DNA from: Neophaeotheca triangularis
Taxonomy: Eukaryota
DNA: 64,000 nucleotides
Direction: 5' to 3'
Assembly: GCA_054600435.1 (NCBI GenBank)
Contig: BAAIJX010000020.1
Location: 1-64,000, forward strand
The translations under genes and the position numbers were made by a program. This document shows positions 6,527 to 58,400 of this stretch, piece after piece. Under the pieces are notes generated by a model. It made no database searches. It worked only from the letters and a program-made list of their open reading frames with translations, and had not been told where the DNA came from. Position 1 is the first letter of the stretch, and each line of letters opens with the position of its first letter.

Positions 6527-7567
6527 GAGGTTGAAGGAGCCATGCGGTATCGAATCGTTACATACCGTAGAATGCTCATAGCTGGTCAGAGATTTGAGCC
6601 TTTCGATTGTCTGTGTCAGCTAAAATGCCGTAAAATCTCTTGGATAAGACCGCCTTTGTCATGAAGTACCTCGTTTATAAGGGCCAGTCTTGGCACGGCC
6701 TGATTGGTTCAGAGGTAGTGTCTGGATATAAGATCCTTTAGCGGTATTATCTTTGGTTTTAGGAATGCCTCAGGCATGCGTTTCCCCGTCTCAGCCAAGG
6801 CCGGACAGATTCAGTTTCGGTCGCACAGCTCAGTGGATAGTTCTCTCCTATTCAACAACCGATCCCACGCCCATAGAACCGCATATTAGTTGAGCTGATA
6901 TCACGTGATTGCGGATGTCCCGCCGGGACACTCCTCCACATCCCAATACTAGCGCTAGATCAGACTGGTCAATCACAGCTCACAAACTTATCGATAAGAT
7001 CTTTGGCAATTGACTGCATCCCGTTTCCTTGGTATGCCAAGAGCAAAGTACCTACATGTAAAAGACCCAGCACCACCACTGAAAATAGTACCAAACAGTT
7101 ATGAAACCAGGTCTTTTCCGAGAGTACATTTGAAAGGCTCAGACCTCTGAACAGCTATGAGGATCTCACAGAAGCAGTTGGTGGCGAGGGTGAGGTCTCC
7201 ATGCGCACGCTGACCCTCGAGCGGTTACACCCCTCCCCGGGATGTGTGCAGAATGCTCCAAGGGACCTCGATGGCCTGGGCCGCTCCGCGAGGTAAGCCC
7301 CACCTAACATTATCGTCCTGATGGATGCGTGTGCTACTATTGTGGCGTTGACAGCTCATGAGAGACTGCATATGGGTGTCCAATGAGGAGGCGACCCCTA
7401 CCTCCAAAGCTGACCCTGCATGATCCTGCGAGCAGCTCAGCCTGATCGAGTCTGACAGAGCTATTTTGCAGCGTGCCCCCGCCGTCTTTCTAAGTGTAGG
7501 CAGCACGTCTTGATCTTTTTACTGTAATCTGACAAGCGAAAGTCGTTAACACGAACGTTTGACAACG

Positions 7568-10500
7568 ATGCCAAAGCCGAAGTTGAAAGAGCGGCTCAAG
7601 GCGTGGAAAAGCTCTCGGGCCGGCTCGCCGCTGCCGCCGCCGTCTCGACACACGGTATCTCCACCAGCACCAACCGCCACAACTACAGCAACGTCGACAC
7701 CAACGGCTTCTGCAACCTCTTTGAGCTCTAAGGCGCCCGGGACGATCTTGTCGGAAGCCCTTGCAAAACTGACTCCTGATGAGCAGCAAGTCGTTCGCCA
7801 GCATGCTGGATCCACCGCCAGCGATGCAGCCAAGGCCGTCGATGAGGTTTACGCGGCCACGAGGCTTCTCCAGCCGCAGGACGCGGATAGGAGCCGACAC
7901 TGGATCTACAACGGCCGCAAGGTATATCTCAAAGACCAGACAGACAAGGTCTTGCGCTTTCTCGACAAGTTCAAAGCCGTCGGCGACGTGATCTCGAGCG
8001 CCGATCCTGTACATGTGGGACTGCCGTGGGTAGGTGTCCGCGTACTGTTACAGGTCGCTTTGTCCGATAGGGAGCAGCAAATGTCAATCTGCACGGGCTT
8101 GGAGCTTGCTCTGCAGGTTAGCAGTCGACTCAAGGTGTATATCGGGTATCACGAAGAGCTGTCTGCCTCGCCGTCGAAAGAGAACTTGCGTGAAGCTCTC
8201 GTGAACCTATATTCTCACATCTTACGCTTTTTGGCAAACGCCATTGGTGTCTACGCGAAAGGCTCAGCTGCCCGGGCTGTCCACGCTCTCTGGAGCGCGG
8301 ACAATGTAGCCACGTTCGAAGAGCAATGCGACAAGCTCTGTATCAGGGCCGAAACGGAGGCGAGCAACTGCGACAGGGACAAGATGAACGAGCTTTCTGC
8401 CAAGATAGAGCCACTGAAGGATATTCACAGCATTCAAAGTTCCATTGCGATAATGCAAGACAAACTCGACCTGTCGAACCTCGTGATAGCCCACGAGGCA
8501 ACGCATGACTCTTTTGACGAAGGAGAGCTCCCCCGATGTCTTCCTGGCACTCGGACTGATCTTCTCGACACTGTTACCAATTGGGCGTCCGATCCGAACA
8601 GCAAGAAGATCTTCTGGCTATGTGGCAAGGCCGGAACCGGGAAGTCCACGATATCCCGCACTGTAGCCGAGAACCTCAAACAGGCAGGACTACTTGGAGC
8701 GAGCTTCTTCTTCAAGAAAGGCCATGAAACTCGAAGCAATGCCAAACTCCTTTTCCCTACACTTGCGGATCAGCTCGTGAGAGTCGTGCCAGGCATCCGT
8801 CAGAGCCTCGTCATCGCTCTCGACAAGGAGCCCAACTTGTGCCATCAACACTTGAAAGCCCAATTCGATGGGTTGCTGGGAGGGCCGTTTCAAAATCTCA
8901 AGACTCATGGCATGACGTCTAAGGCTATTGTGGTGGTCATCGATGCCCTTGATGAATGTGCAGGCTCCGAGAGTATCAGAACAGTGTTGAGACTTCTCTC
9001 ACAGATCGGCATCGTGACTTCAATCCGCCTACTCATCTTCGTGACCAGTCGACCGGAGGTTGATGTGGAGTCAGGGTTCAGCACTTTCTCCAGAGGGCTT
9101 CTCGAGGATGTTCGACTAGAAAATGTTCAAGCCAGCTCGATTCGGCGCGATATTCAAATCTTTTACCAAAGCAAGTTCGCCGATGTAAGGCAGAGCAACC
9201 CAAGGCTGCCGTCAGACTGGCCCAGTAAGGATACTGTCAACTCCCTTGTCAAGCTCACGGAACCGCTTTTCATCTTTGCAGCGACTGTGGTTCGGTACAT
9301 CTCTGAAAGATATCCACGCCAGCGTCTCGAGCTCATGATGAAAGAGGGCTCCAGCACAACTATCACTGGCATCGAATCTACATATCGGCCCATCCTCGAT
9401 CAATCCCTTGGGCTTGACAAAGATCGAACCAAAAAACGAGACAACGACATCATCGCGGAGTTCCAGACCGTAGTTGGTCCCATTGTCCTGCTGTTCAACC
9501 CTCTCACCGTCGCAGCGCTTGAAATCCTGCTCGCAATATGTATTGAAAATATTGAGACTGTCCTGAAGCAATTACATTCTGTCTTGATGGTTCCAAAGAA
9601 ACCTGACGGCCTGCTCGACGAGACAAAGGAGATCAGGTTGTTTCATCTCTCCTTCCGCGACTACCTTCTAGGTTGCAAGCCCGAAGATGGGAACCAATTC
9701 TGGATTGACGAAACCAAGATTCACAGCCGTCTGGCTGAAAGGTGCATTGACCTGCTTAACTCCGGTGCTCTGAAAGAAGATGTCTGCGACCTTGGCGCGC
9801 CAGGGACGGCAAGATTGGATGTCCCCATGTCCCGCATCGAAGAGCGCCTGCCCGCTGCTGTCGCGTACGCTTGTCGATACTGGGTACACCATGTGATTGC
9901 GGGCGAGGACGCTATGACCGGTGACCAGGGTCCAGTTCACCAGTTCTTACTAAAACACTTTCTTCATTGGACTGAGGCCATGAGTTGGCTCGGGAAAGCA
10001 GCTGATGTCATCCGGCAGTTGGCAGCACTGAAATCGCGAATCAAAGTGGGTAGCTCCGCACAAAGTCGAATGGAAACAAAGGCAGAGAAGTCACCCGGCT
10101 TGGTTGACTTGATTGAAGATCTCAGCCGCTTCATCCTGATGAACAGACCCGTCATCGACGAAGCACCCCTTCAGACGTACCTGGCCTTGATTTTTACGCC
10201 GTCTCAAAGCTTGACTAGGCAGCTCTTCCGTAGCACATTGGAGCAGACGTTTGAGAAGAAGTTGAAGGTTCCAGAGTACTGGAGCAATGAGCGCCTCCGC
10301 TTGCATCTCCGAGGAGTTGTCACCTCGATGGACTTCTCCGCAGATGGAAGTATTTTGGTAACTGGTTCTCGCGATGGAGCGGTGCGGCTTTGGTCAACGG
10401 AAACTGGCCAGGAGATTCTGAACCTCACAAAGGGCCGGGACTTGATCGGCGTCAGGGCTGTAGTAATCTCTGCTGACGGCAAGAAAGTCGTTTCATACCA

Positions 10501-12217
10501 CGCACGCGTTTTCGCCGATCCTTTTCAGGAATTGGTTCTTTGGTTCACGGATACGGGCGAGAAAGACGTTCTGCACAGCCCGGGTAGCTTTTATTCTGAT
10601 ATGACGAGCATAGCCATATCTGGCGACAGTAAGACAATCGCTTCATGTTGGATTGACGGACCAAGACACAAGGGTGTCAAGTCTCGTGAGATTTTTGTTG
10701 ACAGCGGAGAGGTCCACCATCGTTTCAGCTTGGTTTTGGCGGAGAACAACCCTTCCAAAATACTAGCACTCTCTCACGACGGCACCGTGCTTGCTGTGAT
10801 GGGCCCGCCCATAGGGTCGTTGTTACTGTTTAACACCGCGTTCCCGAGCCTAGAACCCACATTGGAGATTCAATTGCCTGGCGAGCACGAGTGGAAGATT
10901 TTCTTCGGCCGAGAAGGCAACACGCTTATAGCACTATTCCAGAACGGCGACTTGAGATACTGGGACGTAAATTCTGGCAGAGAGCTCAGCGTGGATGAAT
11001 CTGCCGTGGAGATGAGGCATCTCAAGCTGTTGGCCCAGGAATTAGTCGCATTCTCTTGGGAAGACAGATTTGGGGTTGTGGCAATATGCCCAAAGAGCTG
11101 CACTCTCGCACGTAAATCAGAGTACATGGTGGGTCTCTACGACGTCAGTTCAGGCTTCACAATCCCACTTCCGAAGGGACAAGATACGAACCCCAGGTCT
11201 CATATGAAGGATCGTATCCTCGACGTGGCTTACTCGCCGGACGGTACGTTCGTCGCTTCGGTAGGGACGAATTCACAAGTGGCCTTCTGGAACACATCCT
11301 CAGGTACACTAAGTCATGCCTTCGAAATTTTGACAGGTGCGGTTGTACCTTATCCTGACCTCAACGTATTGGCGCCTATCTTGGGCGAGGAGGTACGATC
11401 ACGGAACATGCGCCTACTCGAAAATGGCACCGCTGGTGAGCTTGACCAGATGCATCCGTCCCATGCTCGAGAAGTTGCGTTTTCCTGCGACGGTAATAGG
11501 ATCGCGATCATTGCTTCCTTTGTTGTTTGCAAGCGTTCCGCGAGAATTCGAACTGATTACTATTTACTTGTCTGGATCACAGCAACAGGCGAGCTGCACT
11601 CTGTGTCCCAGTTGCCTAATTGTTCGATATGTCTTTCTTTCCACCCGCACGGCCGCATCTTGGCAATTGGGGGCGCAAATGGAAGAGTCGATACAGTGAG
11701 CGTTGATGATGGACGTACTCTCAATACAGTGGGGCAATGTTCTGATGAAGAAGATCCAGGTGGTAAAGGTGCACTCTCTGTGGCGTTCTCCCCTAACGGT
11801 GATCTACTTGCGAGCTTTCTTGTTGATTCTGGCGTTACGGTTTGGGGAACATCCGACTACTCTGTGGTTTTCTGCCAAGGTACGGTTGGGCGATTGGGTG
11901 ACTTGATGTCAGTTCGCGAGAAATTCTTGCGTTTCTCTGGAGACAGCACCGTCGTCGCTTCACACGAAGGTCGTTTTCGCGTCGATACAGAAGTGCCTGA
12001 AAGTCAAGCGTCAGAGGAAGGTCTTCCACTCGCTGTGGTGAACCAGTTCTGGATCGTACTGAGAGGCGAGAGGTTTCTCTTCCTGCCGGAGGAGTATCGG
12101 GGTAGTTTTTTCGACGCAAGAGGGTCCTCTCTTGCCATTGGTCGTCAAGACGAGAAGGAATTGTCACTCTTCGACTTTGCCAAATGGGCGAAGTTAGAGA
12201 GCACGGACAGCCCTTGA
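7568..12217 (+). CDS. Fungal NLR, HET-E-like NACHT-WD40 (NWD) protein with N-terminal helical (NACHT_N/Goodbye-like) domain
   Basis: Intronless ORF of about 1549 aa; CLPGTRTDLL, FWLCGKAGTGKSTISRTVA (Walker A), LGASFFF, VVVIDALDEC (Walker B), FVTSRPE, FHLSFRDYL, YACRYWVHH, HFLHWTEAMSWLG; degenerate WD40 repeats (FSADGSILVTGSRDGAVRLW, YSPDGTFVASVG, FSPNGDLLAS). Confidence 0.9.
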   Translation: MPKPKLKERLKAWKSSRAGSPLPPPSRHTVSPPAPTATTTATSTPTASATSLSSKAPGTILSEALAKLTPDEQQVVRQHAGSTASDAAKAVDEVYAATRLLQPQDADRSRHWIYNGRKVYLKDQTDKVLRFLDKFKAVGDVISSADPVHVGLPWVGVRVLLQVALSDREQQMSICTGLELALQVSSRLKVYIGYHEELSASPSKENLREALVNLYSHILRFLANAIGVYAKGSAARAVHALWSADNVATFEEQCDKLCIRAETEASNCDRDKMNELSAKIEPLKDIHSIQSSIAIMQDKLDLSNLVIAHEATHDSFDEGELPRCLPGTRTDLLDTVTNWASDPNSKKIFWLCGKAGTGKSTISRTVAENLKQAGLLGASFFFKKGHETRSNAKLLFPTLADQLVRVVPGIRQSLVIALDKEPNLCHQHLKAQFDGLLGGPFQNLKTHGMTSKAIVVVIDALDECAGSESIRTVLRLLSQIGIVTSIRLLIFVTSRPEVDVESGFSTFSRGLLEDVRLENVQASSIRRDIQIFYQSKFADVRQSNPRLPSDWPSKDTVNSLVKLTEPLFIFAATVVRYISERYPRQRLELMMKEGSSTTITGIESTYRPILDQSLGLDKDRTKKRDNDIIAEFQTVVGPIVLLFNPLTVAALEILLAICIENIETVLKQLHSVLMVPKKPDGLLDETKEIRLFHLSFRDYLLGCKPEDGNQFWIDETKIHSRLAERCIDLLNSGALKEDVCDLGAPGTARLDVPMSRIEERLPAAVAYACRYWVHHVIAGEDAMTGDQGPVHQFLLKHFLHWTEAMSWLGKAADVIRQLAALKSRIKVGSSAQSRMETKAEKSPGLVDLIEDLSRFILMNRPVIDEAPLQTYLALIFTPSQSLTRQLFRSTLEQTFEKKLKVPEYWSNERLRLHLRGVVTSMDFSADGSILVTGSRDGAVRLWSTETGQEILNLTKGRDLIGVRAVVISADGKKVVSYHARVFADPFQELVLWFTDTGEKDVLHSPGSFYSDMTSIAISGDSKTIASCWIDGPRHKGVKSREIFVDSGEVHHRFSLVLAENNPSKILALSHDGTVLAVMGPPIGSLLLFNTAFPSLEPTLEIQLPGEHEWKIFFGREGNTLIALFQNGDLRYWDVNSGRELSVDESAVEMRHLKLLAQELVAFSWEDRFGVVAICPKSCTLARKSEYMVGLYDVSSGFTIPLPKGQDTNPRSHMKDRILDVAYSPDGTFVASVGTNSQVAFWNTSSGTLSHAFEILTGAVVPYPDLNVLAPILGEEVRSRNMRLLENGTAGELDQMHPSHAREVAFSCDGNRIAIIASFVVCKRSARIRTDYYLLVWITATGELHSVSQLPNCSICLSFHPHGRILAIGGANGRVDTVSVDDGRTLNTVGQCSDEEDPGGKGALSVAFSPNGDLLASFLVDSGVTVWGTSDYSVVFCQGTVGRLGDLMSVREKFLRFSGDSTVVASHEGRFRVDTEVPESQASEEGLPLAVVNQFWIVLRGERFLFLPEEYRGSFFDARGSSLAIGRQDEKELSLFDFAKWAKLESTDSP

Positions 12218-27298: not shown

Positions 27299-27833
27299 TC
27301 AACAATCATCCGGAATCCCAGCAATAGCCTCGATCTCCACTAGGAAATCTCCCGGAAGCCGACCAACTTCCACTGCAGTGCGGGCGGGTTTGGGATCCGG
27401 TAGCATGGCGCCGTAGACCTCGTTCATCGCCGAGTAGTCGTCCATGTCGGCGAGGAAGACCGTCGTCTTCATCACGTAGTCCCACGAAGTGCCGGCTTCC
27501 TCGAGCACGGCGCCGATGTTCTTGATGACTTGGGCCTGCGTTTGTGTTAGTGTGGCCCCGCAACTTTGGCGGATGGGCGAGGGTTGTGGCTGTGGTGGTT
27601 TGGCTTACGGTTTGTGCCTCGATGCCGCCGTCGATGATGGAGCCGTTCAAGGTTGGCACCGTGCCGGAGGTGTAGACGATGGCTTTGGAAGTCCAGGCGC
27701 CGCTTGAGAGGATGGGGCCTTGGGTTCCTAGGTGGGTTATCACGGGTTGCTTTGCGAGTTTGGGCGTGGGTTTGGCAATGGCGGCGCCGGTGACGGCGAG
27801 GAAGCTCGCGAGGATGGATGTGAAGGCGACCAT
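27299..27833 (-). CDS. RidA/YjgF/YER057c/UK114-family imine deaminase with N-terminal signal peptide (exons 27833-27609, 27535-27299; 153 aa)
   Basis: In-frame intron GTAAGC..ACTAAC..GCAG; VYTSGTVP, GGIEAQT|AQVIKNIGAVLEEAG, VMKTTVFLADMDDYSAMNEVY, PARTAVEVGRLP, LVEIEAIA; leader MVAFTSILASFLAVTGAAIA|KPTP. Confidence 0.92.
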
Positions 27834-28131
27834 GGTTGGATAGCTATGAGGTTGCTATAAGGATGCTACGAGTGTTCGACTAAAGGACTGGAGAGGAAGT
27901 TGACGCCAGGAATGCTTTGAATGCCATCGTCTTCGCTTCTCGCTTTATAACAATCGACCCCTTCAGCAACTTCCGGTTCGTAGGCATTTGGTTGAAGTTC
28001 AGCAACTACGCTACGCGAGTTGCCATGTCTTCCAAGAGCTGCGAGGGCCACTAGTCGTATCTTCATACAGCTGTGAGACCCCATGCAGCCGCTTGGTAGT
28101 GACACGGAAGAAAGCACAGCGGCTCTGAACG

Positions 28132-29479
28132 CTATCAATCTCCCCGTCGGCCTTGCGATCCCAGACGTCTTTAGAGGGTCGACGCCCTACTTCGGCCAAG
28201 CTCGGGTGCATCCCCCAGAATCACTACAACAGTGCATACTAGGGCCAGAATTCTTATCTCTTGGGTATTGGATCATGCAGCGAAAGACGTGTTGAGCGAA
28301 TTCTGACTCTTCCAGATCAAAGAGCGAATTCGATTGAGGCCAATCATAAAGGGCAAGATAAGGGACATGCATGCACACACGCAGGAATATCACAGTTATC
28401 ACTCATCATAGTAGATCTTCGGCATGAGGTTGATAAGGTCGATATGTAAAACGCTCTTTTCGAACCCTCCCAGCCACTCGGCGTTTTTAAACTCCACAGC
28501 AAACCCCACAGTCGACCCGCATCGCATGGTGACAACGTGGTGAAGACGATAAGGTAGTACTACTAGTAAGTGCCGCTGCTACTTGTAGAAGCATTCCAAG
28601 GTTGGAACAACGTCCTCGCCGAGACCTTGTAGTTTAGTCGATTCGATACACCTCCACTTGACCAGTTACAGTAGTAGCGGTAGTAGTCTTTTTACTACTA
28701 CTACCGACTTCTCCATCTGCGCGCGGCAGATTCTCGCTACAGTACAGACAGTATCCACCCGAACTTCATCGTATCTCTCGCAACCCTAAACACTTGCCAC
28801 AGGCATTACGGGTTACAATTCCATAATAATACGACGGCTCGACCCTCCAAGGACTGACTACCTTTGATGCTATCGAACCTCGCTTGAAGAAATGCTCGCC
28901 AAGCTCCCTATCTTGCCTTGCCATCAAATCAGGTAGAAGGTAGGTGTTCAAGGATTTACCTGGGTACTTCATCTGCAGCTTGATGCACACCCAAGTCCGA
29001 CTGCTCGTGGCTACTTGGTCTTCTTATCACGGTATGCGTTGTTGAATTCGGGACTGCTTCGCGATGAAGCGAGTGCTGTCGTCCCGTCTTTCTGGCTTGA
29101 GATAGGCCACCAACCCCCATCCACTATCCCACTCCAACCCGGAATACGAGGTACCGATTCATGCATGCAGCATCGTGGATACCATTGTCTGTAAACGAAC
29201 ATCTCGCGTTATTCCTTGACCGTCTCTCGATGCGTGCTCTAGGCTACTCCACGCTGGATCAACCACGAATAGCTTGCGTACTGCGACTCTAGTTGTCATG
29301 CAAAGCGATCCTTCAAGATATCCTTTGATAGCCCATCTACCGGGCTTCTTATCGCAGCTGCACCATCGAGAAGATAGGCTATAGCTAGCAGGCCCAATGG
29401 AGCCACCTTCAAACCCGAGATCATGTCTATTGGAGTGGAGCGTCCTGCGACATATCCTCGCATCGGACTGCCTTGATAA
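28132..29479. promoter_or_regulatory. Cluster of HGATAR (AreA/NIT2-type) sites in the Rid-LAAO divergent promoter
   Basis: 14 matches counted by eye on both strands, starting near 28132, 28254, 28356, 28396, 28431, 28547, 28870, 28908, 29024, 29100, 29326, 29349, 29372, 29474; outward-facing TATA boxes at 27944-27949 (-) and 29557-29563 (+). Confidence 0.6.
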
Positions 29480-29633
29480 ATACATTATGACCAATTGCAA
29501 TGAGAAATTTCGCGGACTAGAAAATTCAAGGCCTTAGGGGGCCGGGCTGGACCAAGTATATATGAGGCAAGGCCCCTGTCTCCTTGAGCTCAGATTCTCC
29601 TGATCAGCACATTCACCTCCTCTTCAAGGCAAT

Positions 29634-31750
29634 ATGAAAAGTCGTTTCACAGCTTCCTTTGCGGCGCTTTCTGTGGCGGGCGGCGCTCTCGCTAGCCCAA
29701 TCACTCCTCGTTCAGACTCTTTGTCTTTCATCAAGCCTTCTTCGGTTACGTCTGACTCCGTACATAACGTCCATGTCGGCTACGGCGATGATGATCTCGA
29801 AGGCGAGGTCCGGCTGGTGTACGGAGACTGCGGTATGAAAGCCCACCACGAAAGACATCACGACGTCGCTTCACACCACGTCGATCGTTCGGCACGACCA
29901 GAGCGGTTCGTTTGGATCGTGCCCGAGGATGCCTTTTCCGGTGGCTGTCTGCACGCTTACTCCGGACAAGAACTCATTGGTCGATCGGCACCAATCTCTA
30001 TCACTCACCAGCCCAAGAAGCGGCAGGAGATCTCAGAAGTCGCAGATGCTATGGGTCCTTGGTTCGACGGTGTGGCGTACATGCAGTCCAAGAAGAACAA
30101 TGCCTCCTACGTCGCCGAGGCAAAGAGCAAGCAGATCGCCATCGTTGGCGGAGGTATGGCAGGCCTGCTGACCAGTCTACTCCTCGACTCTGTGGGCGTT
30201 CATGATTGGCACATCATCGAATCCTCTGACCGTATCGGTGGCCGTGTCCGAACAAAGTACCTTGCCAACTCCACACCAGACGAGTACCAATACCAGGAAA
30301 TGGGACCCATGCGATTCCCGGTATCAGCCTTTTACGAAGAATTCAACGAGACGGTGGAGATTCAAGACCACAAGATGGTGTTCCAACTGGGAGATGTGCT
30401 TAATCAGATGAACGGAGGTGACGAGAGCCTTGCCGTCAACTTTATTCCTTGGATCCAATCTAGCCCCAACACACCCGGCAACTCGAACGGCTACCGTCTC
30501 CCTAACGGACGCATTCCCAGCATCGCGCAGATTCGGGCAAACAGTACAGAATATACTCTGCCAAGCGTCGAAGGACCCGACGAGGAAGCAGTGGAGGAGG
30601 CAGAGGAAGCTCTTGAAGAATTCATCGGCACTTCGCCAGAGACCCTCCGCAATATATCCACCAACGTCTACCAGGCCCACAAAGACTACGTTGAGAACGG
30701 CTACTTTCACTTCTCCGAGGCAGCCTACTTGAGGTATGCGCTCAACACGAGTGACGATGTAATAGACTATGTGACCGGCAACGGTAACAGCCCGATCTGG
30801 GAGTACGACGCGGCCTACTTCAACGCAGACAAATGGCTCACAATCGACAAGGGCCTCGAGTCTCTACCCCGAGCCTTCCATCCTCTCGTCAAAGACCGGC
30901 TGACATTGGGACGCAAAATCACCGGGCTCAAACACAACAACGACAGCGACAAGATCTCGGTCCAGTGGCGTGACGACCCCTTCGCCATGGAGCCCCAAAG
31001 CAAAGAATACGACTACGCAGTCATCTCCGCGCCCTTCTCCAAAGTCCGGCTCTGGGACCTGCCGGACTACTCCTCCCTCCTCTCCCGCGCCATCGCCTCC
31101 CTCAACTACCAACAATCCTGCAAAGTCTCGCTCCACTACAAGACCCGTTTCTGGGAACACCTCTCCCCGCCCATCATCGGCGGCTGCGGCTCCACCGACA
31201 TCTCCGGCATCGGCAGCGTCTGCTACCCAGCCTACGAGATCAACTCGACAGGCCCGGGCGTCCTACTCGCCTCCTACAGCTCCGGCACCGCCGCCCGCTC
31301 CCTCGCCGCTCTCAGCGAAACCGACCACATCGCCATGGTGCAGCGCGCCATGGTCCAAGTCCACGGCGAGATCGCCCAAGAGCAGTGGACGGGTGCCTTC
31401 GACCGCCAGTGCTGGGAAGTCGATGAGCATCAGGCCGGTGCCTGGGCGAGTCCGTACATCGGCCAGCAGGACTTGTATTTGCCGGCGTACTACGAGACGG
31501 AGTTCAAGTCCATCTTCATTGGCGAGCATAGTAAGTTTTCTTCCCTCCCCCCACCACCCAACCCCTCGTCTTTCCTTCAAACGTCCCGATTACTGACTTT
31601 GTGCCCCTAGCCTCTTACACACACGCCTGGATTTTCTCGGCGCTGGATTCAGCGGTGCGCGGCTCGACGCAGCTGTTGCTGGACATGGGGTTGGTGGACG
31701 AGGCGAAGCAGATTGTGGACGAGTGGATGGGGAGGTGGATTTCCATTTAG
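29634..31750 (+). CDS. Secreted L-amino-acid oxidase (flavin amine oxidase family); exons 29634-31530, 31611-31750; 678 aa
   Basis: Signal peptide; pro-region ending KKR at residue 130; IAIVGGGMAGL FAD motif, IIESSDRIGGRV, YQEMGPMRFP; spliced FIGEHTSYTHAWIFSALDSAVRG; architecture as in Neurospora LAO. Confidence 0.9.
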
Positions 31751-47441: not shown

Positions 47442-49328
47442 TTAAGCAGCCGCGGCCACAGCCTGCGCAACCTGCACCCGTTCCTTCTCCAAAATGCTCT
47501 CAAGCACTGGCAGTGCCTCCCTTCGACTCCCCTGCGGCAGCTCGGCTTTCAACTCGCTCAGACCAAGCTGCTCGCTAGTCCAAAGGGGCTCGACAACCTC
47601 GGCACCCTTCTCGCCGACTCCAACGAACCCGCCCTCGCGAGCCCAGTCCGAAGTGCGCTTGATGCCGAGTTCGCGCCAGACGCTATCGAGAGCGGTGACG
47701 AGCTCGTCGCGGTACTCTTTGATGTGGCCGGGTGTTGGAGTGATGCGGAGGCGTTCCTGGCCAACGGGAACGGTGGGGTAGTTGATGGCTTGGACGTAGA
47801 TTTGGTGTTTCTCAAGCAGGAGATCCGAGGCGGCTTTGGCGGTTTCGGCGTTGCCGACAAGGACGGGGATGATGTGCGAGGGGTTGGGCATCACGGGTAT
47901 GTCTAGGCCTTCGAGCTGCTGTTTGACGGCGCGCGTGTGCAGTTGTTGCAGCCGCCGGTCGCCGCCGTAGCTCATTTGGTATTCGATGGCGGCTTTGGCG
48001 CCGGCCATGGTGGCCGGGGGAAGGGAGGTGGTGAAGATGAAACCCGGTGCTAGCGAGCGAATAGTGTCAACCATGCGTGCGGAGCCGGCGATGTAGCCGC
48101 CCACGCAGCCATAGGCTTTGCCGAGGGTGCCGGTGATGATGTCGATACGGTCTTGGACCGTGCCCTTGGTGCTGCGGCCGTGGGCGTAGGTTTCGTAGTC
48201 GAGGTGCTCGGCGACGCCGGCGCCGTTTGGTCCGTACATGCCGACGGCGTGGACTTCGTCCAAAAAGGTGATGGCGCCGTATTTCTCGGCGAGGTCGCAG
48301 ATTTCTTCAATGGGACCGATGCTGCCGCACATACTGTAGACACTTTCAAAGGCAATGATCTTGGGCACGTTGGGCGGAAGCGAGGCCAGTTTCGATTCAA
48401 GGTCCGCTACATCGTTATGTTTGAAGACCATTTTCTTGGCGCCAGAGTGCCGGATGCCTTGGATCATGGAAGCGTGGTTCATGCTGTCGCTGAGAATGAC
48501 ACAGTCGGGGAGTTTGCTACCCAGGGTTGCCAGAGTAGCGTCGTTTGCAACATAGCAAGATGAAAAAACGAGCGCAGCTTCCTTGGCATGCAACTTTGCC
48601 ACTGTCTTTTCCAGGCTCATGGCGTGCTGGTTATGTCCTGAGATGTTTCTTGTTCCTCCCGCACCAGCTCCGTACATATCCAAGGTCTCGTGCATCTGCT
48701 TCAGGACCTGGGGGTTTCGGCCCATGCCCAGGTAATCGTTGGAGCACCACACTGTAACTTTCTCCTCGGGAGTCGACATGTGCGCGCGAGGGAACTCCTG
48801 GGCCAAGCGGTTGATGTTGTTGAAGTACCGGTAGCTCTTATCTTTATGCTTCTTGTCGAGCTCGGTCTGGTAGAATCCGTCATAGTTGAATTGGGCGGCC
48901 TTGGGTGGCGCTGGTGGTCCGGCATTCATCTGCCTCTTGTTGCTTTGCTCCTGTGTACCGACATTTGCGCCGCGTGCAGTAGGCATGGCAAACTCTCGCC
49001 TCTCCCTCCTGACTTCGTCCACCTGGGCTTCCTTGGGGGCGGTCGTGTGCAATTTGGCGGCCCTGGCGTGTGGAACTTTGGCGTGGTAGGCTCTGGCGCC
49101 ACCAAAGGCACCGGATAAAGCGGCGTTGCCGGTGCGAGCGCTCTGCACGCTCAATGCCTTACCCATGACGGGGCATCGGCGAGCAATAAGCTGCAAGTTC
49201 GACATGGCGCCACCGCCGGGAGCGGCATGCTGGACGGTGGAACTGGTGGAGAGGGATCGAAGGTGTGCGGGAGAGGTTTTGGAGAGAAAGGGGCACATTG
49301 TGCGGGATTGGCGGAGAAGGGTCTCCAT
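47442..49328 (-). CDS. HEM1: 5-aminolevulinate synthase, mitochondrial
   Basis: ATG 49328 (METLLRQS); heme-regulatory CP motifs (MCPF, RCPV); [40 protein letters not shown] (PLP lysine). Confidence 0.97.
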
Positions 49329-49557
49329 GATTCTGCGTTGACGAGTGTGTAGAGAGAGAGAGAGAGAGGAGTGTAGACAGCTGGGGGAGTGTATCAAGAG
49401 AAGGAAGAAGGAGGGAAAGTGAGAGGAAACGGGCTGGTTATACGGCCCACTACTAACTTTACTGTGCTGAGTGAGAGTCTGAGAGAGTGAGAGAGTTTAG
49501 GGTAGAGTGTGTTGCATGACGGGCGCCATCGAGTCGGACTACTGTGGAGAAAAGGGC

Positions 49558-52985: not shown

Positions 52986-53292
52986 GGCTGCGTCTTTGGG
53001 TAGCAAGTGGTCAAGTGTTGAGCATGTGTAGTGATTGGATTCCAGTGATGAATGTACACCTGAGTTGGTAGAAAGTAGAGAGAGGGTCTTCAAACTTCAT
53101 CTAATACCCCGCTGCCAGAATTGCTCGTTCCGCGCTAGTGCTAGTGCTAGGACGGTCGTATAAGCCTACGAAGACTCGGATTCCTATCCCAACAGCCCCG
53201 CGGTTACTCCTACCTTTAACTTTCCTAGTTTTGAGCTAATCACCCGTAACTCGGCATACAAACAACAACAACAACAGAAAATCCAGGATAGT

Positions 53293-55164
53293 ATGACTCG
53301 CCGTAAGGTTAACCTCGAGCCTTTTAGGGACGACATCAAGGCTCTTATGCGCGATAAGGTCAGATAGTAAGACATTATTACTTACCTACGAGACAACCAC
53401 AATTGCAAGGTAGGCCTTATACGCCTTCGCGAGTCGCTCTATAACTAGGGGGTAGTAGTACAGCACTACAATGCTAGTATGTTTAACGGACCTACGCTTC
53501 GCGCGAGACTCGCCTATATGTTCGTAGAACACCTTATTACGGATAAGCAAATCGCGCAGATTTTACTAGCCGACGGCCTAGCGGACATTAGTAGCCGCAA
53601 AATCGCAGAGCTGCGTAAAGAGATAGGTCTGAAAAAGCGAATCGAGAGAGGGACGGTTAAAGAGTAGGAAATAGAGACCACTATACACGTAGTATTGACC
53701 TAGGAGTACGAGGACGGCTCTATTAAGGACCTTAGAATAGGCTACCTATACTAAAAGATGCGGTCTAAGTACAACATAGTAGGTAGGTAAGCGAGTCTCG
53801 CATTAGGTCCCTACGAGTTATAGCCTGTCTACTATCTACGGGCTCCGTCCGAACTCTATCTCGTCTAAACTTTATGCTAAGACTAGTAAGATTTCTTTAA
53901 GGGCGCTCTATTAGAGTTTACGAGGCTCATATTACGCGAGAATCACTGTAGACTCTTAGGCTAACAACTCCTTTAGGACTCGACTTTAGAAGATCGTAAA
54001 ACAGCTTAATCTAGTAGTATTCGAGCGCTATAGTCGTACCGTGCGCTATATATGCGGCGCCGTTAACTATCCTAGTCCTAATTACATCTAGTCTATAGAC
54101 GTCTATTACAAGCTCGAGTTATACGGGATCTAGGTCTACGGCGCTATAGACGTATATTTACGTAAGATCATGTAGATCTATTATGGTATATCTAGCTATA
54201 TAGGGGTTTTAGTTACGGCGTAATACCTTAAGACTGTCTCGGAGACAGGTATCGCTCCGGAAATTATCACTACTAATAGGGGGGGTAAGACTACTATAAT
54301 AGTAGACGCTTACTACTAGATCGTAGAGCAATTAAGGCTAGGACCTAATGGCAAACCCTTAGGCTTTAAGGACTGTTTCTAGTATAGTACTAGTAAGTAA
54401 AACTAGCGCATTGAATTATGGTAGGGCTAGGTAACTAAAGGAGCAATTAACGTATAGAAGTTGTACTTCGAGTTACTAGTGAGGAGGGGTATCTATAGGC
54501 CGGCCTTGCTCTATTACCGCATTGCCTTCCTTGTAGTCTATGTACCTATTATTCGCGACTAACTCATTAAGTTTACGAAGCTCTAGAACAGACACACTAT
54601 AAGGAAGCAGCTAAAAGCGCCTCACTCGACGCTAGGGGTCCTAGATCTAGTCTTCGAGTACCTATAGATGTAAGGGAAACGAGACTATAGCTATACCGTG
54701 CCTACTAAACTCATCCTTCCGTTATAGGCCGAGTTAGCGGATTTCCGTAAGCAAAAGTGCGCGAGTTACACAATATCTAGTAGCTAACTAAGCATTTAGA
54801 CATCGACGCCTACCTACTAGAGCCTACTAAGCAGTTTTGCACTACTACTCTAGAGGAGCTCGGATTTGTAGGACTCGACGGTATATAGACCGCTATAGAC
54901 GGCTCGCGGTTATATCGATATATGTTTTTAGCCCTCGTAGATCGAGTTTATAGCTATATGTAGAACGGAGAGGCCCCGGATCTTAGTAAGCTCGCGCGAC
55001 TACTAGCGGCGGCACGGTAGCGAGCCGCTAACGTAGCTAAGGGGGTATTTAATACGGTAAGGGAGCCATTCATTAGTAGTGCTAGCCTAGGTAACGCTAA
55101 ATTGCTAGAGCTAGGTGATATGAACTATGCCCCTATAGCATTCATTGACCCTAGCCTAGAGTGA
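53293..55164 (+). pseudogene. Transposase: Clr5-like/HTH N-terminus + integrase-core DDE domain, with introns (about 53787-53976 and 54747-54799)
   Basis: MTRRKVNLEPFRDDIKALM...; PSPNYI*SIDVYYKLELYGI*VYGAIDVYLRKIM*IY, PEIITTNRGGKT, FKDCF*YSTSK*N*RIELW*, L*NRHTIRKQ; reverting transitions gives WSID / TDRG.E / NQRIESWW. Confidence 0.85.
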
Positions 55165-55545
55165 ATCGTTTATGTCTCAGGGTGCTACTCGTAAGGGCAT
55201 CTAGTCTAGATTGTACTACACTTACTAGATTCAACATCCTATATAAAGTATAGGGGTTAGTACCGCTGTTTTGGAAATTTTACCTCGGATTTACGACACA
55301 TTACGCGTAAATCGCGCCTATATAGTTCTATATATAAGGGTAAGTAACACACCGCTACTAGTCGTCCTATTATTTAATAAGATAGCCGCCCCCCCCTCCC
55401 TCTTTCTTCTTCCTTTTACTCTCTTCTACCTCGTAGTTGTCTCTATATACGTATAGCTTTACTTCTTACTCTTTTTTAACATCATCTTTCGTCTTAACCT
55501 TGCTCACGCGTACATCTCTAATACCGAGCCACTATAGACAACTAA

Positions 55546-57111
55546 ATGCCGACATAGGCTAACAATCCGATTTGCCCGCGCTCGAAGGGGAATCACGAGC
55601 GACTCTATGGCTACCTAGATACGTGTCCTACATACGGACTCCGTAACCCCTACCCCCTAGATAGGAGGGGTGTCCGCTATTCGTTAGTAGTCCCTATTAC
55701 TACTACCCTAAGAGGCCTACTACGAGATAGCGCCTATCTAGACTAGTATATATCCTCGACAAACACCTCTAACTATACCGGTAGTAGCTCCTAGACCTCC
55801 TCCTATCGGGAACTAGCGAATCGAGAGCATAGCTATAGGAACCTAGTAGTAGGAGTTATAGACCGAGACGACAGCGATCTAGGCCGCTAAATCCGTCCTA
55901 TATACACCGTCTTCCAAAAATCCTATACTAATAAGTACTATACGCTAGCCGGTAATCGACTACAAAACCTCTAGGGTAGGCCTTATACGGGCTCGATAGC
56001 TTTAAGCTTACGTAACTCGGAGGCGACTTAGCGTAGTAATAGCTCCGGACCTCTAGCTCCGAAGCCTATTAAGTTCCGGATAGAGGTTACTTTTTAGTTA
56101 TAAGAGGTTACTATTATTACTTATGGCGGCGACGAGCCTAGTATAGACCTATAGAAGTACGACGAGCTACGTAAGATCTAGGAGGTTACGGACGGCTTTA
56201 TAGAGCAGGCCTTCGTCGAGTCCGGCTTACCTCTTTTAGGCTTCTTAACTACGTAGTATAGTAATAAGTAGACGAGGGACCTTAAATCGACCTAGACTCG
56301 GTACTACACTTATCGCTTTGTTAATAGTTTCGACGATGACGATTGTCTACGCGACTATAGTAGTGTAGTCGAGAGCATGTCGGTCCGAGAAGCACTAATC
56401 CCCTTTAAGGCTAGTAAAAACAAGCCTTATAAGGTAGTAATCGTCGTCTAGTTACGTACTAACCGTTAGAGCAAAAAGAAGAAGAGTAAGAAGAGCAAGA
56501 TAATAGTGACACCCTAGAACCACTAGACTAGCGACGACGCTAGCGAAGATATACGCTATAGTATAGAGACCGGAGATACGCCGATTAAGAAGGAGCAGTT
56601 ATAGACTTCGAGGGTATAGCTCCCTAACGTGATTAGGGAGTTCATAGACCTAATAGGCTATATACTAACCCTACGAGCTATACGAGCTACTACGCGAGGC
56701 GGTAACGAGTCGTTCTATTGCGATCTAGTCCCTAGGCCGACCTTTAATGCATTTATAGGGTACGGAGGGGATACGGAGTAAGAGGGGGAGTAAGAGGGGG
56801 AAGCGGACAGCAAATCTACTACGCGAGATAAGCAAGATGTGACTAGTACTAGTAACGACGGTTCCGAGTCGTCGCGCTTATCGAGTCTACTGTCTTTAGA
56901 CCCCCTCGACCCTCTTACCTATAGTAACGGGGGTTCTAGCGGCATACGGACCGGCGATAAGTTACACGGTAAGGAAGGGGAGATGCCTCGCCGCTCTAAA
57001 CGAGCTAGGCCTGTCGATAAAGAAGATAGAGGTTAGTAGGGGGGATAGGGGTAGGGAAAGTCTAGGGGTAAGGGTAAGGGTAAGGGCAAAGGAAGGGGGA
57101 AGAAGGGGTGA
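55546..57111 (+). pseudogene. Transposon ORF2, unknown function (Cys/His N-terminus, basic GK-rich C-terminus)
   Basis: 522 codons ATG-to-TGA in one frame interrupted by RIP-type stops; NPICPRSKGNHERL..DTCPT(Y/C)GLRNP; KKKKSKKSK; ends GKGKGKGKGRGKKG. Confidence 0.6.
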
Positions 57112-57230
57112 ATAGTAGGAGACTTATAGTACCTATACCCTACATAGGTATAGGGGGGAGCCGTAGGACTTAGTGCTTATGATTGCTGCTTTTTTTCGTT
57201 TTTTTTTCGTTTTTTTTATAAGAAATATGT

Positions 57231-57579
57231 TTACGAGTCAGCCACTATATACGCATAAATATCAACAAAATCTCGGTTTTTTTCTTCTCATAATGATAGG
57301 GCGCTTTAAGAGGCTTTTTTTTTGATTTTTAGTCTTTTTTTAGTCTTTTTTTGATTAATTTTGTTTTTTAGGGTAGGAGTTTAGTTTAGTCTATTTTGCG
57401 AGTCAACCACTATATAGGCATGAGTATTAATAATATACTTTTTTTTTCTTTTTTTTTTCGCGGATTTGCTCTTAAATTAAGTGTTTTTTTCTTTTAGTTA
57501 CTAGTTTTTCCTTCTTTTCTTATCCTTTTTATTATGTAAATTTGCGAGTTAGCCACTATTTGCGTATAAGTATCAATAA
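57231..57579 (+). repeat. Three copies of a ~38-bp motif within the T-rich spacer of the transposon
   Basis: TTRCGAGTYARCCACTAT... at 57231, 57396 and 57542. Confidence 0.85.
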
Positions 57580-57825
57580 ATCGTTCTTTTTTTGCTTCTT
57601 AATTCATAACATAAGAGAAATTCTTAAAATTCGAGTTTATAGCGATTTTTCATAGATTTTAAGGGGTAAAATCAAGGTTTATAGGGTCAATTAGTTGAAT
57701 TTAGGTAAGATTTAATGAATTCATTGATTTTTAAAGTAAATAAACTCCGACTCGTAGTTAACTTAGGGTATAATAGCTAGATTCAGCTCTTAAAACCTAA
57801 AACTCCTTATTTAACCTCCCCTTAC

Positions 57826-58400
57826 TTAGGTACCGGGCCTCCTAAACTCGAGCGCACGGATTCTAGTAGAGAGAGTCTAGATCGCAGCCTCTACTAATAC
57901 TAATCGCTCCTTAATTGAGGGGGGACTCTTATTATAGTTAGTAGTATAGCGAGACTTACTCTACCTTTTGTAAAGCGCGTATGTCTGCCCCTTATCGACT
58001 ACTATACCGCTCTCGAGCTTAAGGCGCTTATAAACACGGTAAGGTAGCTAATTACTATAGCGAGTACACTCTAAGTAAGGCTCCGCCGTATCTATCCTAA
58101 CCTCCTTATCCTCTGTAATCTTACTAGCCGTAGCAAACTTCCTTAACTTATTAGCTGCATTTTTATGTATCGTACCTACTTTTAACTTGCTAAGCTACTC
58201 GTCCTAAGTCTCTTGCTTTACGAACTAAAAGTCGCTCGAGTCGGTAGTTTTAGGGCGGTAGAGCCTTATAAGGTCGTAGATAGTGATATCGCTCGGGTCC
58301 GGCTCGGGACTAACTTTACGTCTATTTATGCGTGAGTTAGTATAGAGTGTGCTTAAAAGGTGTTTAATTTAGGAAAAAACACCTACTTTTTAGGGGGTAT
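57826..58400 (-). pseudogene. Transposon ORF3: NLS + Cys cluster + coiled-coil (exons 58400-58387, 58321-57826)
   Basis: Phase-2 intron GTAGGT..CTAAC..TAG yields (M>I)PPKKRKVSPEPD; EPYLEC..LPYRVY..TYALYKR..SRY reverts (TAC/TAT to TGC/TGT) to CxxC..C..CxxC..C; IKERLVLVEAAI*TLSTRIRALE heptads. Confidence 0.65.

Follow-up and report, generated by a model that had tools for sequence, protein, structure and literature searches.

A divergent gene pair for an L-amino-acid oxidase and a Rid-family protein, both predicted to be secreted, in Neophaeotheca triangularis and other ascomycetes

L-amino-acid oxidases (LAAOs) generate the textbook substrate of Rid proteins. The window analyzed here, a stretch of 64,000 nucleotides from Neophaeotheca triangularis, contains a Rid gene and an LAAO gene side by side, both of which encode proteins with a hydrophobic leader. 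This locus raises the question of whether the two products act together outside the cell, as the initial annotation proposed, or whether the genes share little more than a promoter.

The locus and its two predicted enzymes

The Rid/YjgF gene (-) and the LAAO gene (+) diverge head-to-head with an ATG-to-ATG distance of 1,800 bp (27834-29633), and the outer limits of the locus, 27299 and 31750, are the stop codons of the Rid and LAAO genes, respectively (Table 1). These gene models agree exactly with the initial annotation, which had described such a pair across 1.8 kb; the hydrophobic leaders of both proteins and the KKR-terminated pro-region of the LAAO that it reported are likewise seen in the translated sequences. 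Orthologous proteins and the metagenome contig L001 run uninterrupted across the point of the Rid splice junction. The C-terminus of the LAAO agrees with 18 of 19 aligned orthologues, which supports its intron, the exception (P0121) having a divergent predicted end.

Table 1. Positions of the genes, their parts and the intergenic elements in the window
Feature	Position	Strand	Description
Rid gene	27299-27833	-	153 aa, one intron, ATG at 27833
Rid exon 1	27609..27833	-	75 codons; leader and N-terminal part of the Rid domain
Rid intron	27536..27608	-	73 nt, GTAAGC...CAG, CTAAC branch-like site
Rid exon 2	27299..27535	-	78 codons and TGA; bulk of the Rid domain
Arg127 codon of Rid	27382-27380	-	in exon 2; invariant residue
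Rid signal peptide, predicted	27774..27833	-	residues 1-20, cleavage after A-I-A
Divergent promoter region	27834..29633	.	1,800 bp, 14 HGATAR sites
TATA-like box, Rid side	27944-27949	-	intergenic
24-nt element	28022..28045	-	some 190-210 nt before the start codon of Rid
TATA-like box, LAAO side	29557	+	intergenic
LAAO gene	29634-31750	+	678 aa, one intron, ATG at 29634
LAAO exon 1	29634..31530	+	PF01593 match, 7.5e-37
LAAO signal peptide, predicted	29634..29693	+	residues 1-20
LAAO pro-region	29694..30023	+	residues 21-130 (~110 aa)
KKR, Kex2-type dibasic site	30015-30023	+	LAAO residues 128-130, end of the pro-region
LAAO intron	31531..31610	+	80 nt, GTAAGT...TAG
LAAO exon 2	31611..31750	+	46 C-terminal residues and TAG; codon of the first residue includes the final base of exon 1

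Exon 2 of the Rid gene alone matches PF01042 (Rid/YjgF/YER057c/UK114) with 86.8 bits (1.4e-24; cut-off 27.3). Marks of the RidA subfamily are the TIGR00004 score, a conserved Arg, a chorismate-mutase-like fold in a homotrimer, and 2-imino-acid deaminase activity. The full-length sequences of the orthologues P0005, P0076 and P0107 score 100.8, 98.5 and 98.6 bits against TIGR00004, which is their top-scoring family despite an NCBIfam cut-off of 106.25 bits that they narrowly miss; profile positions 1-18 are unmatched. Arg127 is invariant in two alignments (20/20 and 29/29 orthologues) and is aligned with the Arg of Bacillus subtilis YabJ; we take its counterpart to be the active-site Arg105 in Salmonella numbering. 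YabJ is the nearest solved relative (5e-25), and the window protein is closer to it (91.4 bits) than to yeast Mmf1 (63.8) or Hmf1 (61.4). When the P. nodorum orthologue is modelled as a monomer (pLDDT 72.8), Foldseek matches it to YabJ/RidA chains with a probability of 1.00 and a TM of 0.7-0.8 on the target; residues 33-43 of the model have a pLDDT below 50. By the profile scores, the window Rid is a member of a borderline, divergent RidA-like clade. Homology points to imine deaminase activity; since an N-terminal segment is unaligned, the subfamily score lies below the cut-off and the pLDDT is locally low, the substrate range or the activity itself could differ.

The LAAO matches PF01593 with 128.1 bits (7.5e-37; cut-off 19.8), and its dinucleotide-binding motif G-G-G-x-x-G begins at residue 172. 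All nine solved chains that match it at E<=1e-16 are L-amino-acid oxidases, and next in order come oxidases of L-lysine, L-glutamate and other L-amino acids, so that the closest characterized relatives are not mono- or polyamine oxidases. Its G-P-M-R-F-P segment pairs with G-A-M-R-I-P of an ancestral LAAO, where the Arg following the FAD motif, invariant in the orthologue alignment, is presumably the carboxylate-binding residue. The sequence of the pro-region is conserved among orthologues; K-R occupies the pro/mature boundary column in each of the 20 aligned LAAOs, and [RK]-K-R in 19 of them. No characterized enzyme of this exact clade was found in the literature searched, and LAAO activity is predicted from the homology described above.

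Predicted secretory leaders, conserved linkage and the shared promoter region

Residues 1-20 of the Rid contain no charged residue, include a hydrophobic 12-mer with a mean of 2.09, and end in A-I-A, followed by K-P; the corresponding residues of the LAAO likewise form a hydrophobic leader, with A-L-A followed by S-P. In all 22 full-length Rid orthologues picked for comparison from 120 listed, positions 1-20 have a hydrophobic core, no acidic residue and at most one basic residue. Each of the 22 also retains an N-x-S/T sequon, represented in the window Rid by N-G-S at residue 63 (exon 1). A dibasic site is located downstream of the leader in three Chaetothyriales orthologues, and none of the Rid proteins examined has a KDEL or SKL-type C-terminus. 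Both window proteins thus display a hydrophobic core, small residues at -3/-1 and no retention signal, as expected for Sec signal peptides. For the P. nodorum orthologues, SignalP v4 returned YES for the Rid (0.762) and the LAAO (0.585), as listed in Additional file 7 of PMC8146201. A secretory nature of the Rid leader, on which the initial annotation had relied, is supported by the 22 orthologues and by this SignalP result. In the available portions of the literature and supplements searched, no secretome record was found by locus tag, and the passages retrieved concern other Rid proteins. The sequence features suggest that both proteins are secreted.

The pairing is not peculiar to this genome, a point on which the initial annotation had depended. 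In 14 named species, which belong to the Dothideomycetes, the Chaetothyriales or Fusarium, the locus tags or accession numbers of the Rid and LAAO genes follow directly on one another. Adjacency is thus found across three classes of Pezizomycotina, and its recurrence in many genomes places it far beyond chance. The layout is divergent in 3/3 informative metagenome loci (L003, L005 and L008), and a head-to-head arrangement with a gap of 1.5-1.8 kb is established by DNA or coordinates for five loci, namely the window, these three contigs and P. nodorum chr22, the last by the coordinates published for P. nodorum Sn15 (PMC8146201, in part). The main clades are common to the Rid and LAAO trees, and the flanking genes vary, the gene past Rid not being the same between loci. 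The pairing is real and conserved in ascomycetes. Its carriers include many plant pathogens, rock-inhabiting or saprotrophic Chaetothyriales, and marine and soil metagenome contigs. In two Stachybotrys species, the Rid and LAAO genes are unlinked and an orthologous LAAO is still present; in F. solani-melongenae, the two genes lie far apart. No Rid counterpart for the LAAOs of this family in Colletotrichum, Penicillium and Aspergillus was found among the best 120 Rid matches of each list, and not every LAAO of the family may need a Rid.

The intergenic region contains no conserved coding sequence. The 24-nt element within it is matched at 23/24 positions in L003 and is recognizable in L005 and L001. 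HGATAR sites of the AreA/NIT2 type number 14 in the window versus 6.2+-2.4 in shuffled sequences, of which 1/200 reach 14; enrichment is similarly observed in L005 (8 versus 2.9; 1/200) and L008 (13 versus 4.1; 0/200) and is weak in L003 (8 versus 4.7; 16/200). The HGATAR motif is also bound by other GATA factors. According to the available part of PMC8146201, the P. nodorum pair is expressed at 2.65 versus 0.027 and 4.07 versus 0.40 FPKM in planta versus in vitro, values that are low and cover two conditions only. The proposal that the two genes are co-regulated thus gains indirect support from the HGATAR enrichment and from the same-direction change across these two conditions, and both co-regulation and nitrogen control are suggested.

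Comparison with algal, bacterial and fungal systems

In Chlamydomonas reinhardtii, LAO1 and LAO2/RIDA comprise an extracellular LAAO with an adjoining RidA gene, induced by nitrogen limitation (available text of PMC10805672), and the two proteins are drawn as cooperating in the periplasm (PMC10805672 and PMC5053998, both in excerpt). The fungal pair, likened to this system by description and not by sequence comparison, would similarly combine an extracellular LAAO with a neighboring RidA-family gene for the use of amino-acid nitrogen. Unlike the algal pair, it belongs to another kingdom and diverges from a single 1.5-1.8-kb region. The pro-LAAO family of the window enzyme is fungus-wide: among 20 members looked up from 150 listed, 16 are fungal, one is bacterial, and no named algal protein occurs.

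Bacterial lao-ridA clusters are exemplified by lao-cccA-ridA of G. diazotrophicus, with a predicted periplasmic LAAO (excerpts of PMC5053998), and Rid genes in bacteria cluster with FAD amine oxidases generally (PMC4433059, in part). The fungal pair shares with these clusters the genomic linkage of LAAO and RidA. However, the bacterial operon also includes a gene for cytochrome c, and no such gene lies between the fungal pair. A Rid ORF was found within 6 kb of the closest bacterial LAAO relatives in 0/13 loci, which indicates that the fungal pairing was not inherited from the nearest bacterial LAAO clade. Common descent with the bacterial clusters was considered and rejected on the basis of these 13 loci and the missing cytochrome c gene.

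Among fungal enzymes, the LAAO of Neurospora crassa is made as a precursor that loses about 130 N-terminal residues. The secreted L-lysine alpha-oxidase of Trichoderma viride likewise starts out as a pro-enzyme, its propeptide being N-terminal, and we know of no Rid partner for it. It resembles the window LAAO as a fungal flavin enzyme of the LAAO type (solved-relative match of 1.7e-16 to 1.9e-16), whereas the alignment is C-terminal only (query 484-611) and the pro-regions are unrelated by sequence in this comparison. Yeast has a mitochondrial RidA protein, Mmf1, and a cytosolic one, Hmf1, with which the window Rid shares the PF01042 fold and the conserved Arg; in contrast to their presequence or lack of a leader, it has a leader of the signal-peptide type. 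N. crassa lao and Aspergillus nidulans laoA encode broad-range LAAOs that are induced by nitrogen limitation and serve in the use of amino-acid nitrogen (PMC4699246, in part). The window enzyme is comparable to them as a fungal LAAO, several of its orthologues being deposited as 'L-amino-acid oxidase precursor'. A partner Rid gene for lao or laoA is not mentioned in the available portions of the literature searched, and Neurospora and Aspergillus are absent among the best 120 matches of each Rid list.

No description of a secreted fungal LAAO-Rid pair was found in the literature searched. The novelty suggested in the initial annotation would thus be limited to the fungal pair, as the concept already exists for an alga and for bacteria, as the accessible parts of PMC10805672, PMC5053998 and PMC4433059 attest. 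The fungal LAAO-Rid module is an extension of this concept and not a new principle.

A candidate extracellular deamination module and its alternatives

The most likely reading, which we hold with moderate confidence, is that of a nitrogen-regulated, co-secreted two-enzyme deamination module. Cleavable signal peptides would carry the Rid and the LAAO into the ER, the LAAO moving as a pro-enzyme from which a Kex2-type cut after KKR130 would free the enzyme in the late secretory pathway. Once outside the cell, whether in the medium, the cell wall or the apoplast, the LAAO would convert L-amino acids to 2-imino acids and H2O2. The secreted Rid, in which the invariant Arg127 is kept, would speed the hydrolysis of these products into 2-oxo acids and ammonium, and the ammonium would then be taken up by the fungus. 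The shared 1.8-kb region would drive both genes, probably through an AreA/NIT2-type GATA factor under nitrogen limitation. Such would be the physiological role of the pair. Imino acids also hydrolyze spontaneously, which may limit the benefit from the Rid; the pairing probably speeds the extracellular release of ammonium from amino acids. In vitro, LAAO-made imines are hydrolyzed by RidA (PMC4433059, in part).

A rather unlikely alternative is that the Rid serves mainly as a stably bound, possibly non-catalytic subunit that stabilizes or tunes the extracellular LAAO holoenzyme, as in the periplasmic enzyme of Chlamydomonas, a complex of a catalytic LAAO and a non-catalytic subunit of the RidA type (excerpts of PMC5053998). 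The tight linkage and co-inheritance of the two genes suit such a role, but the invariant catalytic Arg and its surrounding motif argue that catalysis has been kept, and the genes are unlinked in Stachybotrys. That the genes only share a promoter, the secreted Rid being independent of the LAAO and acting on other imines or enamines, outside the cell or in the secretory pathway, or in some other role, appears very unlikely in view of the LAAO product being the classical Rid substrate and of a linkage held in three classes though the flanking genes change. Rid proteins do accept many imines (PMC4433059, in part), and Stachybotrys retains the Rid without linkage, yet it still has the orthologous LAAO. 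We regard as most improbable a Rid leader that is a mitochondrial presequence or membrane anchor, which would leave the Rid inside the cell and only the LAAO exported. Canonical fungal Rid proteins are indeed mitochondrial or cytosolic, but the leaders observed here are hydrophobic with 0-1 basic residues and small -3/-1 residues, unlike Arg-rich amphipathic presequences, and the conserved sequon, the dibasic sites of some orthologues and the C-termini free of KDEL or SKL-type signals also argue for export. The SignalP v4 result for the P. nodorum Rid (YES at 0.762; PMC8146201, in part) speaks against an intracellular Rid as well.

It is quite unlikely that the module serves interaction and not nutrition, through H2O2 antagonism or host damage or through 2-oxo acids in planta, with the Rid setting the product ratio and protecting wall proteins. 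One such 2-oxo acid is indole-3-pyruvate, an auxin precursor. A role in interaction is favored by the 10- to 100-fold higher expression of both P. nodorum genes in planta than in vitro (PMC8146201), by the association of LAAO-RidA clusters with indole-3-pyruvate/IAA in G. diazotrophicus and Chlamydomonas (PMC5053998 and PMC10805672; all three sources in part), and by the number of plant pathogens among the carriers. However, the pair is also carried by Chaetothyriales that inhabit rock or live as saprotrophs and by metagenome contigs of marine and soil origin, the GATA-site enrichment is compatible with nitrogen control, and nitrogen limitation may by itself account for the induction in planta. 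A broader proposal, doubtful in our view but worth stating, is that the pairing arose independently in fungi, that the secreted Rid is required for ammonium release and protein protection, that extracellular imine stress is a general selective force, and that pathogens possess an apoplastic auxin route. The required Rid would then be a bound partner or obligate helper of the LAAO in a two-protein unit, where it would guard the proteins of the wall and those secreted against 2-imino acids, and in plant pathogens tryptophan would be turned through indole-3-pyruvate into auxin in the apoplast.

Rid proteins have so far been studied as intracellular guards against reactive imines and enamines. If the two-enzyme deamination module that we favor is correct, this protection would extend outside the fungal cell through a signal-peptide Rid clade that is conserved in three or more classes of ascomycetes and paired head-to-head with a secreted pro-LAAO. 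The nitrogen-regulated LAAO long known from fungi would gain a partner. The module would bear on fungal nitrogen mineralization and on the H2O2 and oxo-acid chemistry of the hyphal surface, with a possible bearing on auxin-precursor formation by plant pathogens, and thousands of annotations reading 'hypothetical protein' or 'translation initiation inhibitor' could receive new names.

Gene models and protein families

The initial annotation had set a Rid/YjgF gene (-) head-to-head with an L-amino-acid oxidase (LAAO) gene (+) between 27299 and 31750, an arrangement that is borne out: these positions mark the two stop codons, and the two ATGs lie 1,800 bp apart. Each gene contains a single intron, and splicing yields a Rid protein of 153 aa and an LAAO of 678 aa. 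The orthologous Rid proteins are contiguous over the splice junction, as is the intron-free ORF of the metagenome contig L001. The spliced C-terminus of LAAO agrees with 18 of 19 aligned orthologues, the exception being the record P0121, which has a divergent predicted end. No second copy of either gene was found within the 64-kb window.

Coordinates of the Rid-LAAO gene pair and of elements in the spacer
Feature	Position	Strand	Detail
Rid ATG	27833	-	
Rid exon 1	27833-27609	-	75 codons
Rid intron	27608-27536	-	73 nt, GTAAGC...CAG
Rid exon 2	27535-27299	-	78 codons + TGA
Codon of the P-A-R motif Arg	27382-27380	-	Rid residue 127
TATA-like box for Rid	27944-27949		
24-nt element	28022-28045	-	upstream of the Rid TATA-like box
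TATA-like box for LAAO	29557		
LAAO ATG	29634	+	
LAAO exon 1	29634-31530	+	
LAAO intron	31531-31610	+	80 nt, GTAAGT...TAG
LAAO exon 2	31611-31750	+	

The ORF of L001 (426-881 of a 1,079-bp contig) is full-length without an intron; the contig stems either from a long-leader transcript after splicing or from an allele that lacks the intron. Deposited Rid models vary in length: P0064 (SNOG_13150, an older record of Parastagonospora nodorum SN15) has 142 aa, 10 residues below the 152 aa of P0052 from other strains, and further models reach 183-211 aa (P0284, P0255). Such inconsistent gene models may have obscured the leader in some annotations.

Against PF01042, Rid exon 2 scores 86.8 bits (cut-off 27.3), and LAAO scores 128.1 bits against PF01593 (cut-off 19.8). 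The top NCBIfam model for Rid is the RidA subfamily TIGR00004, for which full-length orthologues score 98.5-100.8 bits, slightly under the cut-off of 106.25, because profile positions 1-18 are unaligned. The Arg of the P-A-R motif is unchanged in 20 of 20 and in 29 of 29 aligned Rid orthologues. The nearest solved relatives of Rid are bacterial YabJ (5e-25, 91.4 bits), and plant RidA (78.1 bits) is also closer than yeast Mmf1 (63.8) or Hmf1 (61.4 bits). The signal-peptide Rid clade may not have arisen by recent duplication of the canonical fungal genes. AlphaFold models the P. nodorum orthologue (mean pLDDT 72.8) with an N-terminal helix at residues 4-19, an ill-defined segment at 33-43, and then the Rid beta-alpha fold, and Foldseek matched this structure to YabJ/RidA chains with a probability of 1.00; a search of the ESM Atlas returned only the protein's own ascomycete cluster. 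For LAAO, all nine solved chains matched at E<=1e-16 are L-amino-acid oxidases, with L-lysine, L-glutamate, and further L-amino-acid oxidases next, and the Arg of its G-P-M-R-F-P motif, which is unchanged across 30 orthologues, pairs with the Arg of an ancestral LAAO.

Secretory signatures

Both proteins had been proposed to start with signal peptides, and the features of the Rid leader agree with this. Among the best 120 homologues listed, 22 full-length entries (146-156 aa) that represent named Dothideomycetes, Eurotiomycetes, and Sordariomycetes were picked, with short-contig fragments left out. All 22, as well as the window protein, begin with about 20 hydrophobic residues of variable sequence, in which the top 12-residue Kyte-Doolittle mean is 1.94-3.10, and positions 1-20 hold no acidic and at most one basic residue. 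In each of them, the leader ends in small residues that are followed by a mature N-terminus with Pro, and none carries a KDEL- or SKL-like C-terminus. An N-x-S/T sequon (N63 in the window protein) is retained in all 22 orthologues. In P. nodorum, SignalP v4 calls are positive for both SNOG_13150 (Rid, 0.762) and SNOG_13149 (LAAO, 0.585), as listed in Additional file 7 of PMC8146201. In three Chaetothyriales records from Rhinocladiella and Exophiala (P0076, P0091, P0105), a K-R or R-R pair lies about five residues past the leader, which suggests a short pro-peptide of Rid's own, removed by Kex2.

For LAAO, the window protein was aligned with 19 orthologues picked from the best 120 listed, and all 20 share a leader of the same kind and a pro-region that is ~110 residues long and conserved. 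The KKR terminus ascribed to this pro-region (residues 128-130 in the window) also holds up across the alignment, K-R occupying the same column in 20/20 and [RK]-K-R in 19/20.

Rid proteins reported from secretome studies of A. niger and F. oxysporum were set aside as evidence since they are without signal peptides or not assignable to the clade, and the supplements of PMC5913888 (12 of 24 files) and PMC3914424 gave no match.

Conservation and origin of the pairing

The adjacency extends beyond this genome, as Rid and LAAO carry consecutive locus tags or accession numbers in at least 14 named species. These include Rhinocladiella mackenziei, Cyphellophora europaea, P. nodorum SN15, Pyrenophora tritici-repentis, Alternaria rosae, and Curvularia clavata, together with the Fusarium species F. 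piperis, F. solani, F. phalaenopsidis, F. lateritium, F. kuroshium, F. euwallaceae, Fusarium sp. AF-6, and F. falciforme. On chr22 of P. nodorum, Rid (799567-800130, -) and LAAO (801760-803793, +) are laid out as in the window (PMC8146201). For Plenodomus biglobosus and a second P. nodorum strain, the tags differ by two steps. In at least 11 further named species, the contigs recorded for the two proteins are equal in length, which is a proxy for adjacency only, and the same proxy holds in at least eight more assemblies, with contigs down to 5,051, 8,448, 12,600, and 13,152 bp. At the DNA level, metagenome contigs were scanned with a Rid profile and then searched by tblastn with the spliced window proteins, giving 80 loci, ten of which are fungal-like. 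Among the ten, the sequence upstream of Rid exceeds 2.5 kb only in L003, L005, and L008, and LAAO is head-to-head with Rid in all three, at a distance of 1.5-1.8 kb. Exceptions are Stachybotrys chlorohalonatus and S. elegans, with the two genes on separate contigs, and F. solani-melongenae, with tags 313 apart; in F. vanettenii, the linkage is ambiguous. The linkage is real and old.

A different junction occurs in L007 (671-1373 of a 2,090-bp contig), where LAAO residues 518-678 (-), encoded without the intron of the window gene, meet residues ~71-150 of Rid, from exon 2 (+), near position 1140. Neither the promoter nor the 5' half of either gene is present, and L007 is either an assembly chimera or a form of the pair derived by deletion.

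Linkage is specific to Rid and LAAO. The window pair sits between an ankyrin/C2H2 gene and THO2, and none of the genes around it in the window was found in the fungal metagenome loci, in which the gene past Rid encodes a TauD-type dioxygenase (L005) or an alpha/beta hydrolase (L003 and L002). Membership in a larger cluster was ruled out, the neighbours being the ankyrin/C2H2 gene, THO2, MnmG/GidA, CorA, and others. A class I/II aminotransferase ORF with ~245 residues before its domain lies 16 kb from the pair (47442-49496, -), and no sign of linkage between the two was found. Elsewhere in the window, a 1,555-aa ORF (7550-12217, +) with a NACHT_N/NACHT-type NTPase and WD40 repeats represents a fungal NLR-like (NWD) gene. 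The stretch at 53001-59000 is gene-poor and AT-rich (GC 0.35-0.46), with a strong dinucleotide bias of RIP type (TpA/ApT 1.6-2.5; (CpA+TpG)/(ApC+GpT) 0.23-0.62), and is probably a RIP-degraded repeat.

Maximum-likelihood trees of Rid and LAAO were built for the window and 18 chosen species pairs, with further Fusarium, Alternaria, and Curvularia pairs left out. The supported groupings are common to both, namely a Sordariomycete clade (100/100 in each), Rhinocladiella with Eremomyces, and P. nodorum with Setomelanomma; the Rid tree is weakly resolved elsewhere, with 12 of 16 inner branches open. The two topologies fit co-inheritance, and they place the LAAO of Stachybotrys as an orthologue retained after loss of the linkage. 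With 110 representatives at 50% identity (E<=1e-30), the LAAO family is small. Among 150 representatives listed, 20 were looked up, of which 16 are fungal and one is bacterial (Arhodomonas, 33% identity); the fungal ones span Ascomycota, Mucoromycota, Glomeromycota, and Basidiomycota. No Rid-like ORF occurs within up to 6 kb of the bacterial LAAO relatives at any of 13 loci; on this sample, an origin from a bacterial operon was rejected, and the pairing was therefore probably put together inside fungi. The other 70 of the 80 metagenome Rid loci, which look bacterial, gave no match to fungal LAAO (E<=1e-5).

Shared promoter and proposed function

A hidden gene in the spacer was ruled out, since the top tblastx match against three orthologous spacers has an E of 0.059 and no ORF in the spacer of the window exceeds 125 aa. 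HGATAR, the consensus site for GATA factors of the AreA/NIT2 type, is over-represented in three of four spacers relative to 200 shuffles: 14 sites are observed in the window against 6.2+-2.4 expected (reached in 1/200 shuffles), 8 against 2.9 in L005 (1/200), and 13 against 4.1 in L008 (0/200), compared with 8 against 4.7 in L003 (16/200). Its density in the window spacer is 7.8 per kb versus 2.0 per kb window-wide. CCAAT, CreA-, PacC-, and CpcA-type motifs show no enrichment in the spacer, and just two 8-mers are common to all four spacers, inside the shuffle range (maximum 2). The 24-nt element, which includes an ATG, matches L003 at 23 of 24 positions and can be recognised in L005 and, ~180 nt upstream of the Rid ATG, in L001; it is a possible shared regulatory site. 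In P. nodorum, where expression of the pair is weak, FPKM values in planta exceed those in vitro for both Rid (2.65 versus 0.027) and LAAO (4.07 versus 0.40; PMC8146201), a comparison of two conditions only and thus weak evidence of co-regulation.

RidA hydrolyses LAAO-made imines in vitro, and in prokaryotes Rid genes lie in clusters with genes for FAD amine oxidases, as described in PMC4433059. G. diazotrophicus has a lao-cccA-ridA operon (PMC5053998). In N. crassa and A. nidulans, LAAO is subject to nitrogen regulation and serves amino-acid nitrogen use (PMC4699246, section 2.5). We consider it reasonably likely that the pair encodes a nitrogen-regulated, co-secreted oxidase and imine deaminase. 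LAAO would be made as a pro-enzyme and activated late in the secretory pathway, and Rid, at the cell surface, would act on the 2-imino acids set free by LAAO, yielding 2-oxo acids and ammonium. This two-enzyme reading is the most economical, its support coming from prediction and homology. Counting against it are the sub-threshold TIGR00004 score of Rid with its divergent and poorly modelled N-terminal segment, some genera in which the two genes are unlinked, and some LAAO-bearing genera that are not among the Rid matches listed.

For Chlamydomonas, PMC5053998 describes a periplasmic enzyme in which an LAAO subunit and a RidA-type one form a complex, and LAO1 and LAO2/RIDA are both drawn acting in the periplasm (PMC10805672). 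That the fungal Rid is likewise a bound subunit with a chiefly structural role is unlikely, its P-A-R Arg being unchanged throughout the alignments; a role centred on interactions, via H2O2, oxo acids, or auxin precursors, in favour of which stand the in planta values, is quite unlikely. Both alternatives refine the reading as a secreted oxidase and imine deaminase rather than contradict it. It is improbable that Rid just shares a promoter with LAAO, against which speaks the linkage retained across species. A non-secretory Rid leader is highly improbable, given the hydrophobic segment in all 22 picked orthologues and the positive SignalP call in P. nodorum.

Full texts of openly available papers, with a minority of supplements, yielded no description of a fungal LAAO-Rid pair and no mention of six locus tags of the pair. 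The Rid-LAAO pair is a new fungal variant of an already known kind of system, and as such is of moderate interest.
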